A stretch of DNA of 62,677 bases, filler included. It is 9 parts of 9 records of this genome, joined end to end, with 100 filler letters (N's around TTAATTAATTAA, not from the genome) between each part and the next. Parts side by side here need not be neighbours in the genome. Positions count along the whole stretch, not along the records: positions 45,460 to 48,792 come from SRR15195285_1363; 8 more parts are not named here. One strand, written 5' to 3'. The notes under the pieces are model-generated. The model worked only from the letters and a program-made list of their open reading frames with translations, was not told where the DNA came from and did not search any database. The stretch's first letter is position 1, and each line of letters opens with the position of its first letter. The position numbers were made by a program, and so were the translations under genes. Shown here piece by piece: positions 45,460 to 48,400 of this stretch.

Positions 45460-48400
45460 GCTGCCAATATCCGTTCACTGGCCACTTTTGTTCAAAATGC
45501 ATAGACGGCTACGAGATAGAGACTACGAATATGGACTACAAGTGCGTACGTTGCGGTGACGCAATCAATTCGGACTGGTGGACACCATGCGTGTTCCTGG
45601 TGCTGGTTGCGGTGCTAGTTGCATTAAGGAAGCGACTGTTGAAGCTGTTGGTGCCAAGACCAGAGAAGCTGGCTATCATCCAAGCAATTATACGGTCAGG
45701 AATTCAACCAGCACGGATTATGATCACATACGCACAGATCACCGGAGCGCTTGGGCCAATTCTCGAATTTTCCCCCCCAGAAATGTTCAAGGGGTTCGCC
45801 GACACTTTTGCAAGCGTCTTCCGCTTGTCTTTCCTCGACGTATTTGCGAGCACCCAGTGCCTGGGGGTAGATACCTTTCACCACAGATTCGTCCTGCAAG
45901 TCGCTGTAATGCCACTGGTAGTTCTGCTGTCGCCAACTATACTGTTTCTCATACAGCGGATGAAGGATCCTACCATAGACGCAGCTGCAGTTCGAGGCCA
46001 GCTCTTCTTTGCGGTGTTCTTGATCTATCCAAGCGTCTGCGCTCACTGTTTTGCCTGCTTTGTAACGCTCCGCATCGCACCAGGTGTTGAAGTGCTAAGG
46101 GACGACGATCGACTACTGTATGATGACAGTGAACACATACCCTACCGATACGTTGCAACGGTCTTGATAGTAGCATTTGCTTTTGGTGTTCCTCTAGTGA
46201 CTGCTGGGTTGTTGTTTAGAGCACAGCAGCAGCTCCCGTCGGTCGACAAAGAGCTGCAGGCCCGTGTCAGTCAAGCTTTCCGCGTTAGCATGGGCGAGGC
46301 AGAGGCTGTAATCAATGACATCACCATAGGCTCTACGTATGGGTTCCTTACCGACGCCTTCAAGCCGACGTTCTTCATGACCGAGACACTCGATATGCTG
46401 CGCAAGCTTGGACTTGTGGGAGGACTCTTGTTCGTTGAGCCTGGATCTGTTGCGCAGGCTATGGTTGCTTTGTGTTTTGCGCTGGGTTTCCTGAGTCGCC
46501 ACATGTGGGCTCGGCCGTACAAGTTTGACGCGGACAATCACCTGCGAGCCGCAACCGAAGTGCATACATGCATGATGATCGCAGTGGCACTAGCATTCCG
46601 CACAGATCTGGATTCAACACATTCTGCATTTTTCGGGCTAGAAGATGAAGGGGCTTTCGACCAGTTCGCAGAGGATAGTGCTGAACGTAAACGGGCGTAC
46701 GACTGGTTGCTTGTTTCGACCTTCGTGATCTGCGTCCCAGCCATGTTCACCCTCACGATGGTAAGAAAAGTGAGACTAATCCAGAAAACACTGCAGTACA
46801 CAGCCAAGGCCACCGAAGCTAAAAGCGACAGACAGACACGAATGATATTTGGCTTTCGCCGATTCCAGCTAGGGCTCTTGAATGACAAAGAGACGCAAGC
46901 CCTCGCTGACTACATTTCGACCGAACTAGCTGTCACGAACGAGCATCAGCGAGCAGGAAGGCGGTTGTGGAACGATTTGACGGTTGCCACGCATCTAAGA
47001 TCTAAGGAGCTTGCATCCTTACTTGGCAAGATCCAAGAGGAATTGCCGAGGTCACACTCTATCGGATATCATTTTACAGATCTGGATTCAGCAAACTTAA
47101 TCCTGGGCTCGATCGGAATACGGGCCAGCACGGTAGGTCAGCTAGGTGGAGGGGTGAGTATCTCATTGCAGAGCCCGGTAGACTTTGAATGGGATAGCCT
47201 TTCACCAACGTCTTTCCACAAGAGATGTGGCGATGCTCTATGGGGGACCAAGTGGTACGAGGTAATGCCAGGTAGCCCACCGTCAGATCTGAAGGACAAG
47301 ATTGTGAGCGGGGAGTGGATGGGCACCTGGCCAGCTGCACGAGATGATTGGGGCAAATGGCGCAAGAAGCTTGAGGTTGTGCTCGTGCTTCGCATACCAT
47401 CGGCTGAGAACAGGGACCCGAACCGCATCGTTCCCGGGCGAGGTAGTGTATACATTGTCCCACCAGCTGACTGCGTTCGAAACGATTTCAACGACACCGA
47501 CCAGGCACGGTATCTATCGAACACAACGATTGAAAAGGCGTTGTTGCTCAAGCCACCGAAGTCAGACGGCGTGCAGGTACTGGATGGCATCACAAAGCGC
47601 AACGTCAATGCACGCGTGAAATGCCTTTCTGACAGGGACAGCAATGGGGCGATGGTACAGGTACAGCTCGCTGAGATCGACTTCGATACTCGTGTAGTTG
47701 AGGAGCTGAGGGGTGGATATTGTTATGAGAAAATGCCATGGATGAAAGCAGTCGTCAAGTTCTCCGCGGTTGTGTCTGCAACACCGGCCGATGCATCATC
47801 TCAGGCCTACCTAGAGCGCCATCGTAGACTACACGATATGGCTGCGCATACGAAACATTGGCCAGAGAATGTGTCTAGATTCACTGCGGAAGAGATGAAG
47901 GGGGCGCTACGAGCGATCGAGCAAGCAGAAATGCACTGTTACACCATCCTGTATCACTACTGCAGAGCTGATGAAGCTCGGCGAATGTGTGAGGTTGGTA
48001 ACGGCCTGGACGCCAGTGTGGAGGTCACTCTTGTGTCGCCTGTCGACCTTGGATGGAAGAAATTTCAAGAAGGCAATTTTGTAGAAAATGCAGGTAGAAT
48101 GCTTTGGGGTGACAGTTGGAGGGATGGGCACGCACACGCGCTACAAGCCGTGGTAATTGTAGCCGTGCCGTCGAATGTGGTGCAAGATTGTATGGTTGAA
48201 AGTCTGTGGAAACCCACGCGTTTGCATGAGTCGCTGATGATGGCCGAGAGGGTTGGCAGTCACTCCGAGGGGCTGGTGTACTCAAACGCGTTCGTGCGAA
48301 AGAGCTACATCCTCGAGCCTACAAACAGGAGAGTGTCGGCAACTGTGTCCGACCATGTGGATCGTAACGACGACGACTTTGCAACCCGGATCGAATCATC

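Follow-up and report, generated by a model that had tools for sequence, protein, structure and literature searches.

ADP-ribosylation is known as a weapon of toxins, as a signal of DNA damage and as an effector of immunity. That a membrane receptor would have it as a direct output has, to our knowledge, not been described to date, and our literature searches, whose coverage of reviews of the ADP-ribosyltransferase (ART) families is incomplete, returned no membrane receptor or channel fused to an ART. Two kinds of described systems resemble such a layout: the enzyme-coupled TRP channels, namely TRPM2 with its NUDT9-H domain and TRPM6/7 with their α-kinase, and the binary actin-ADP-ribosylating toxins VIP2, iota Ia and C2I, where the ART fold occurs in tandem and one of the copies is non-catalytic. 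Here we analyze a receptor gene found in a 62,677-nucleotide stretch of DNA (henceforth the window), on a contig at 45460..48792. Its product joins a Cys-rich ectodomain and a multi-pass membrane domain to a tail made of two homologous domains, c1 and c2, with a middle domain (mid) between them. We propose, at a probability of about one half, that this tail is a putative ART-fold effector output of the receptor that uses nicotinamide adenine dinucleotide (NAD+).

Architecture of the receptor gene

The gene is real, though 5'-truncated in the assembly because the contig boundary cuts its 5' end. Its open reading frame is unbroken across 1062 codons; the first ATG (45531) is internal, and the 23 codons ahead of it encode the end of a Cys-rich repeat. 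Translation from this ATG gives a protein of 1039 amino acids (aa), P0001, whose residue numbers are used below. A database record of 1423 aa, P0002, differs from it at 3 of 1039 residues (99.7% identical) and reaches 384 aa further toward the N-terminus than the ATG of P0001, into the Cys-rich ectodomain; residues 1-395 of this record hold 27 Cys. The parts of the gene are the following:

45460..48792, contig of 3.3 kb with the receptor gene, bounded on each side by an N44-TTAATTAATTAA-N44 spacer
45462..48650, plus strand, receptor open reading frame, with its stop at 48648-48650 and the frame open to the contig start
45462..45581, plus strand, last Cys-rich repeat of the ectodomain (CQYPFTGHFCSKCIDGY...CVRCGD); about 40 ectodomain residues lie within the window
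45582..46766, plus strand, multi-pass membrane domain with weak TRP/Flc-like (PF06011) similarity (hydropathy scan)
46767..47042, plus strand, basic juxtamembrane stretch (VRKVRLIQK...), conserved RFxLGL linker, and an N-terminal strand and helix packing on c1
47043..47561, plus strand, c1, predicted ART-fold domain with a conserved NAD-pocket-like motif (model, VIA-align and conservation)
47070..47078, plus strand, H514-F-T516, the HX[S/T] motif that closes strand β1 (conservation and model strand E30-37)
47115..47159, plus strand, GIRAS ... GQLGGGVS, with Arg531, the Gly-rich loop and Ser543 (conservation counts)
47562..47846, plus strand, middle domain of a helix, four strands and a helix (DSSP of the model)
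47847..48323, plus strand, c2, predicted degenerate ART-fold copy, or pseudo-ART (VIA-align and hhalign to c1)
48324..48647, plus strand, Thr/Pro/Arg/Ser-rich C-terminal extension, probably disordered and unconserved (composition; outside the conserved alignment)

A Kyte-Doolittle scan of the membrane part finds six strong hydrophobic segments, one weaker one and two or three that are marginal, and strongly basic stretches follow both the first and the last of the hydrophobic segments. An earlier note on this DNA had counted about nine membrane segments; the multi-pass character stands, while the scan does not clearly yield nine. Seven segments would place the N-terminus outside and the C-terminus inside, and from hydropathy, juxtamembrane charge and the intracellular-type fusion partners of the module c1-mid-c2 (see below) we infer that the tail is cytoplasmic. 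If we take the 45 proteins whose N-terminal extensions are longest, at least four hydrophobic segments precede the module in 16, and in none does even one follow it. The family PF06011 (TRP) is matched below threshold in 7 of 15 membrane-domain homologs (E≤0.1, best 3.8e-5; cut-off 28.5 bits); P0002 scores E 0.031 (13.5 bits) and a related receptor, P0180, 24.9 bits. The fragment in the window, taken alone, has no match to it, and a profile search of the PDB with the membrane-domain alignment returned nothing useful.

DNA contigs carrying the receptor stretch come from seawater and marine metagenome runs (at least 19 runs from 17 studies), and the host is an uncultured marine eukaryote. Contigs from RNA libraries (metatranscriptomes; 3 runs from 2 studies) match parts of the gene, including the tail, at ≥99% identity and show no splice joints; since DNA can contaminate RNA libraries, these matches are but a weak hint of transcription.

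A tandem repeat with a predicted ART fold

The duplication in the tail is real. Between 47001-47700 and 47850-48400, BLASTP finds 26% identity across 119 columns (E 2e-10) and aligns SPVDFEW with SPVDLGW, LWGTKW with LWGDSW, and a hydrophobic strand that ends in PS in both copies. When the profiles of c1 and c2 homologs are compared with hhalign, the probability is 99.8% (E 1.4e-27, 165 columns). The earlier note had been right in calling the two copies homologous, in the motifs that they share and in their positions, copy 1 beginning with residue 512 (GYHFTDL..., at 47064) and copy 2 with residue 807 (LYHYC..., at 47949).

The AlphaFold2 model of the whole tail, made from a 24-sequence alignment, has a predicted local distance difference test score (pLDDT) of 88.5 and a predicted template modeling score (pTM) of 0.88, and resolves into three domains: c1 (tail residues 1-195), the middle domain (199-292) and c2 (300-450). 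Modeled alone, c1 reaches a pLDDT of 94.2; the middle domain was barely sampled by the whole-tail structure search. We compared the models with 48,161 representative PDB chains by VIA-align, which is independent of Foldseek, and considered the best 50 rows. For c1, the best match is the T-DNA protein 6b of Agrobacterium (Z 8.1, root-mean-square deviation (rmsd) 3.7, 131 aligned residues, model 2..197), followed by mouse Tpt1 (Z 6.8, 19% identity), PARP13 (5.8) and PARP16 (5.6), with CC0527 (Z 5.5) and the TASOR pseudo-PARP (Z 5.2) further down. The search with the whole tail agrees with this, and there the c2 domain also has 6b as its best match (Z 8.6, rmsd 3.6, 132 aligned, model 294..451), and CNFy (Z 4.6), Tne2 (4.3) and IcmQ (4.2) stand further down its list. 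By their titles, 33 of the 50 rows for c1 are PARPs, Tpt1, DarT or classical ADP-ribosylating toxins, and 15 others are toxins and effectors that we take to be ART-like or that were left unclassified. The remaining two, 6b and CC0527, are ART-like folds according to the parts of PMC3384090 and PMC8120803 drawn on here. For neither copy do the best 50 rows from the 48,161 chains contain a clearly different fold. Each single Z lies in the grey zone of the tool; what carries weight for the fold call is that the lists are uniform, and this for two domains independent of each other. On this modeling evidence c1 and c2 very probably share the ART fold, with a split β-sheet core that opens with strand-helix-strand, which agrees with the core proposed in the earlier note: both repeats are modeled with high confidence and match only structures of the ART superfamily in an unbiased structure search. 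The language-model (ESM) neighbors of c1, which serve as leads only, are clusters of Tox-ART-HYD1 (0.92), a viral PARP cluster (0.91) and Arr (0.90).

A conserved pocket-like motif in c1

Residue conservation was counted over 74 c1-type domains and 88 c2 domains, the later positions of c1 being covered by 44-57 domains. His514 is present in 74/74 and Thr516 in 72/74 of the c1-type domains, and together they make a His-x-Thr motif that closes the first core strand (model strand 30-37), with a helix next. Gly529 and Arg531 are invariant (74/74 each), as are Gly540 and Gly541 of the Gly-rich loop (74/74 each), while Ser533 is found in 70/74, Gly536 and Gln537 in 73/74 each, and Ser543 in 72/74, the two others being a Tyr and an Ala. 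Two further basic residues are kept, Lys613 (56/57) and Arg637 (56/56), and the best-conserved acidic residue stands at position 615 (Glu or Asp in 53/57; 45 Glu and 8 Asp). Nowhere in the protein is conservation higher than in the pocket segment, which favors ligand binding or catalysis over a relic.

PMC8120803 describes HX[S/T] as the motif with which ARTs touch the proximal ribose of NAD+, and gives Ser as the regular second triad residue of the R-S-E clade. Because Ser543 occupies this second position alongside His, the pattern of c1 reads as a hybrid of the form 'H...S'. Going by strand order in the model and by the topology of PARPs, the third triad site probably lies at the start of the strand 660-663 and is unconserved, as in the mono-ART PARPs and in Tpt1 (H-H-h). 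The earlier note had read the motif as an H-Y-type NAD-binding signature with two caveats, a Ser at the Tyr position of copy 1 and the lack of the Gly-rich loop in copy 2. Both caveats hold; of the three residues to be compared among homologs, the His is conserved throughout copy 1, the Tyr is not, and the acidic residue varies at the candidate third-triad positions. In c2, the position of the His is occupied by Tyr in 30, Phe in 20 and His in 15 of the 88 domains, the Arg shows no conservation and there is no Gly loop; on the ground of its sequence, c2 is a degenerate copy.

The same membrane scaffold with a canonical ART

A search with the membrane domain found three further proteins, P0169, P0170 and P0171, at 42-51% identity. 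Their ectodomains are of different kinds: FG-GAP in P0169, PMP repeats in P0171 and an MCP-like PDC sensor in P0170. The tail of P0171 is again c1-mid-c2, whereas that of P0170, whose membrane domain is 43% identical, is a different one. The P0170 tail is cut by the contig end; its homologs (51-75% identity) carry PF01129 above the cut-off, along with WD40 repeats. The protein P0180 begins inside the same membrane domain, which aligns with the window protein at 32% identity (residues 192-458, E 1e-36) and with P0170 at 35% identity (E 8e-88). After the membrane domain it has a PF01129 (NAD:arginine ART) domain at residues 478-658, scored at 31.7 bits (cut-off 22.3), and then WD40; PF01129 is above its cut-off in P0172, P0174 and P0176 as well. 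Two tails thus alternate on one receptor scaffold, a canonical ART in some proteins and c1-mid-c2 in others, which we take as the strongest contextual support for an output of the ADP-ribosylation type.

The sister family of P0170 and P0180 has a layout of its own, with a PDC sensor, the membrane core seen in the window protein, about 250 aa of conserved sequence, the PF01129 ART and a WD40 propeller, and appears to be an uncharacterized receptor family.

Homologs and domain contexts of the module

Homologs of the tail were gathered from JGI, ENA, EukProt single-cell co-assemblies and NCBI. A search with residues 480-930 found 30 proteins at E≤0.001, the best match other than the protein itself having E 1e-101, and dozens of homologs at 32-47% identity keep the same residues. 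A profile search against 1.84 billion representatives returned 945 proteins at E≤1e-3, of which 152 remain at E≤1e-30, counts that are inflated because the profile also held columns from the membrane and EF-hand flanks. We built hidden Markov models (HMMs) for c1, mid and c2 and assigned the domains in the proteins gathered. A c1-type domain is present in 139 of the 161 proteins with a match to the module; 52 have the full c1-mid-c2, 46 have c1 only (many of these being fragments), and the others are split or partial. The HMM of the middle domain finds matches in 77 of 167 proteins searched.

In other members, the module is fused to domains of an intracellular type. Among the first 30 matches, EF-hands accompany it in eight, ankyrin repeats in four, and a WW domain and a chromo domain in one each. 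Four of nine further proteins scanned add SPRY, PH with a cyclic nucleotide monophosphate (cNMP)-binding domain, CUB (then one hydrophobic segment) and COR-A, respectively. One protein, P0124, has two c1-type domains (residues 110-278 and 803-967) together with SPRY and lacks c2, and its architecture shows that c1 can duplicate on its own.

A further protein, P0019 (MDA8539130.1), is titled 'hypothetical protein [bacterium]' and shows a eukaryote-type membrane core with c1-mid-c2. Its contig is probably eukaryotic and was binned as bacterial, since the motif of the module matched no prokaryote species genome. The scans behind this, with the GQLGGG[VI]S pattern, found no relative in prokaryote species genomes or in viral contigs; they cover one or two motifs and leave the absence unproven.

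A model of the receptor and its alternatives

We picture the receptor in three parts: outside the cell, a portion that varies among homologs and ends in a Cys-rich stalk; in the membrane, a multi-pass domain with a distant likeness to the TRP/Flc family of fungi; and a cytoplasmic tail that would form a rigid three-domain module, c1-mid-c2. The c1 domain would bind NAD+ or a close relative and act as the effector, most likely by moving ADP-ribose to a protein or to a phosphate-bearing acceptor. Its mechanism would be non-classical, because Ser replaces Tyr and no catalytic Glu is placed, and c2 would be a non-catalytic partner. The output of c1 would be controlled by the extracellular and membrane parts and, in the soluble paralogs, by sensor domains for Ca2+, cyclic nucleotides, lipids or GTPases. 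The layout that the earlier note had put forward is supported: a Cys-rich ectodomain, a membrane core of the TRP/Flc-like kind and a tail with the ART fold in tandem. Of the three outcomes that the note gave as refuting it, a repeat model lacking the ART core, an unconserved His and an extracellular tail, none came out, the last as judged from hydropathy, charge and fusion partners. A 'chanzyme', with conduction and catalysis in one polypeptide, is a hypothesis.

Several results weigh against an ART-fold effector of this kind. At the level of the fold, the Z scores of 5-8 fall in the range where VIA-align itself warns of a mere common arrangement, and the closest matches include the pseudo-enzymes PARP13 and TASOR. 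Foldseek against the PDB gives no match at E≤0.001 for c1 or the whole tail, and against the viral library BFVD there is likewise none at E≤0.001. In the PDB searches the best match of c1 is exotoxin A (E 0.043) and that of the whole tail is tankyrase-2 (E 0.16), with TM-scores of about 0.3, and the weak lists consist mostly of H-Y-E ARTs. At the level of sequence, Pfam finds no ART family in P0001, and none of 26 c1-bearing members matches a Pfam ART family even at E≤10 (PF00644, PF15633, PF01885 and the RolB/6b family). PDB profile searches with two alignments (A1 and A2) retrieve no ART, the only matches being to the EF-hand flank and a spurious one, and hhalign of A2 against E. coli KptA, a comparison of low sensitivity with one KptA sequence, gives a probability of 0.04. 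As to the active site, the triad Tyr of the H-Y-E type is Ser in c1, and conservation and strand order by themselves assign no catalytic Glu; at the candidate sites for the third triad residue the acidic residue is variable, position 639 being Asp in 17, Asn in 16 and Ser in 8 of 57 domains and position 657 being Asp in 29/44. Finally, the cytoplasmic topology draws only on hydropathy, charge and fusion partners. Since Foldseek, Pfam and sequence profiles of the PDB give nothing significant, the c1/c2 domain is outside every Pfam ART family and makes up a family of its own, new and very divergent within the fold. Of the H-Y-type families that the earlier note had named for the signature, PARP and Tox-ART-HYD1 do not include the domain, for the 26 c1 members have no match to those Pfam families.

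These results leave room for other explanations of the tail. The gating of TRPM2 by NUDT9-H offers a precedent for a pseudo-enzyme whose c1 pocket would bind NAD+, ADP-ribose or a related metabolite without transfer and so tune the membrane domain or partner domains. The replacement of Tyr by Ser in 72/74 c1 domains, the lack of a conserved catalytic Glu that can be placed, the clear degeneration of c2 and the presence of the inactive PARP13 and the TASOR pseudo-PARP among the fold neighbors all speak for such ligand sensing, as does the eukaryotic ART-like family LRRC9, whose members are proposed to be pseudo-enzymes in the portion of PMC7955679 used here. Yet the module is also fused to classical sensors (EF-hand, cNMP-binding and PH domains), which suits an output more than another input, and sister proteins carry a canonical PF01129 ART on the same membrane scaffold. 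Moreover, the invariant Arg and the conserved basic residues exceed the needs of simple binding, without excluding it. We regard ligand sensing without transfer as a serious but rather unlikely account of the tail. In favor of the effector reading, active ARTs exist that keep the His alone (AcrIF11) or are without the classical residues (6b; Tpt1 with H-H-h), according to PMC8120803 and PMC3384090.

It is less probable still that the tail is an ART-shaped scaffold with an unrelated role, sharing a β-sandwich or a very ancient descent with ARTs and using its motif for protein contact or for chemistry on something other than NAD+. The non-significant E-values and the TM-scores of about 0.3 from Foldseek, the Z of ≤8 in the grey zone of VIA-align and the absence of a sequence-level link to any ART family would suit such a scaffold. 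It is harder to square with the top-50 rows drawn from the 48,161 chains, of which none is clearly of another fold for either copy, with the HX[S/T] motif, which here as in ARTs closes the first core strand just ahead of a helix, and with the independent language-model neighbors, which are ART families. An assembly artefact or a pseudogene could be suspected from a contig of only 3.3 kb with the gene truncated at its edge, but we consider this exceedingly improbable in view of the frame uninterrupted for 1062 codons, the full-length record P0002 at 99.7% identity, the dozens of homologs at 32-47% identity that conserve the same residues, and the many seawater DNA runs and RNA-library contigs matching at ≥99%.

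The preferred reading, an NAD+-using effector tail, can be extended to a tentative proposal, which we hold to be possible though by no means probable: marine protists might possess a class of 'receptor ADP-ribosyltransferases', in which interchangeable ectodomains (PDC, FG-GAP, PMP-repeat and EGF-like) would be set on a shared multi-pass core and drive NAD+-dependent ADP-ribosyl transfer, either through a canonical Arg-specific ART or through a c1 domain of the H-S type. Because its pocket is basic and Tpt1-like, c1 may modify phosphate groups and not side chains. If true, this would be a receptor ADP-ribosyl signaling that parallels the receptor kinases and receptor cyclases. The locus in any case defines a sizeable family of the predicted ART fold that is unclassified by Pfam, and whose pocket of His-x-Thr, Arg, Gly loop and Ser is constrained yet non-classical; c1 could thereby serve as a new ART template for studies of enzymes and pseudo-enzymes. 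The fusion of the scaffold to a textbook ART as well makes a new signaling route in abundant uncultured eukaryotes of the ocean a testable hypothesis.

The window and its other contigs

The window is a chain of separate contigs linked by eight N44-TTAATTAATTAA-N44 spacers, which act as six-frame stop linkers, and genes that flank a spacer are therefore not shown to be neighbors. The spacers lie at:

15891-15990
22787-22886
26997-27096
30466-30565
36600-36699
45360-45459
48793-48892
57143-57242

The contig that precedes the receptor contig in the window has two long open reading frames on the minus strand, at 39436-43224 (1262 aa) and 43313-44950 (545 aa). Both are built of a repeated module of about 200 aa that carries the recurring motif F-x-[YF]-E-[VI]-x-x-P-[NS]-G-x-D-D-S-[FC] along with Cys-rich inserts (CCAG.C..CGG), and Pfam finds a family in neither of them. 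A single open reading frame of 4077 aa occupies 2372-14605 on the minus strand. On the contig that follows the receptor contig, a gene of the nitronate monooxygenase family (PF03060, E 3.9e-53) is encoded at 48922-50121 on the plus strand, with a simple repeat, (AG)n / (GT)n, ahead of it at about 48894-48945.

Comparison with known systems

The ARTs of the PARP and diphtheria-toxin type (H-Y-E), such as PARP10, PARP13, PARP16 and exotoxin A, fill the structure-search lists of the tail domains. With c1 they share the predicted core fold, a His-x-Ser/Thr on the first strand followed by a helix, and a Gly-rich turn into the second core strand. Unlike them, c1 has no match to PF00644 (0/26), a Ser for the triad Tyr, no placed Glu and extra helical inserts, and its Foldseek E-values are not significant. 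Of the structural matches, Tpt1/KptA comes highest in identity (19-21%, with 76-94 residues aligned, Z 5.5-6.8), and according to PMC8120803 it has the non-classical triad H-H-h and relies on basic residues (R-H-R-R). The basic residues of c1 (R531 in 74/74, R637 in 56/56 and K613 in 56/57) are a point of likeness. The differences are that c1 has no match to PF01885, a probability of 0.04 in hhalign to KptA, and no winged-helix N-lobe that could be identified, and that it is part of a membrane receptor whereas Tpt1/KptA stands alone.

The best structural match of both copies, the Agrobacterium T-DNA protein 6b (Z 8.1 for c1 and 8.6 for c2), has no canonical catalytic residues and no equivalent of the Arg or His, as far as the part of PMC3384090 used here describes it. 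It has 8-12% identity to c1 and c2 and no sequence-family link to them; it is a single-domain bacterial effector acting in plants, and c1 differs from it in having the HxT motif.

The receptors P0170 and P0180 resemble the window protein in the homologous membrane domain and RFxLGL linker (32-43% identity), in a receptor-like ectodomain (a PDC sensor in P0170, for instance) and in an ART as the cytoplasmic output; their ART is Arg-specific, of the canonical R-S-E type, and its sequence bears no relation to that of c1-mid-c2. The channels TRPM2 and TRPM6/7 are alike in concept, as multi-pass proteins with a nucleotide-handling domain in the cytoplasmic tail. The membrane domain of the window protein is, however, at most distantly related to the PF06011 group of fungi, and not to TRPM, and its tail belongs to another fold family. 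The toxins VIP2, iota Ia and C2I share with the tail a duplicated ART fold in which the pocket is kept in one copy; they are secreted proteins of the R-S-E clade whose active copy is C-terminal, whereas in the tail it is the N-terminal copy that is conserved, with a middle domain between the two.

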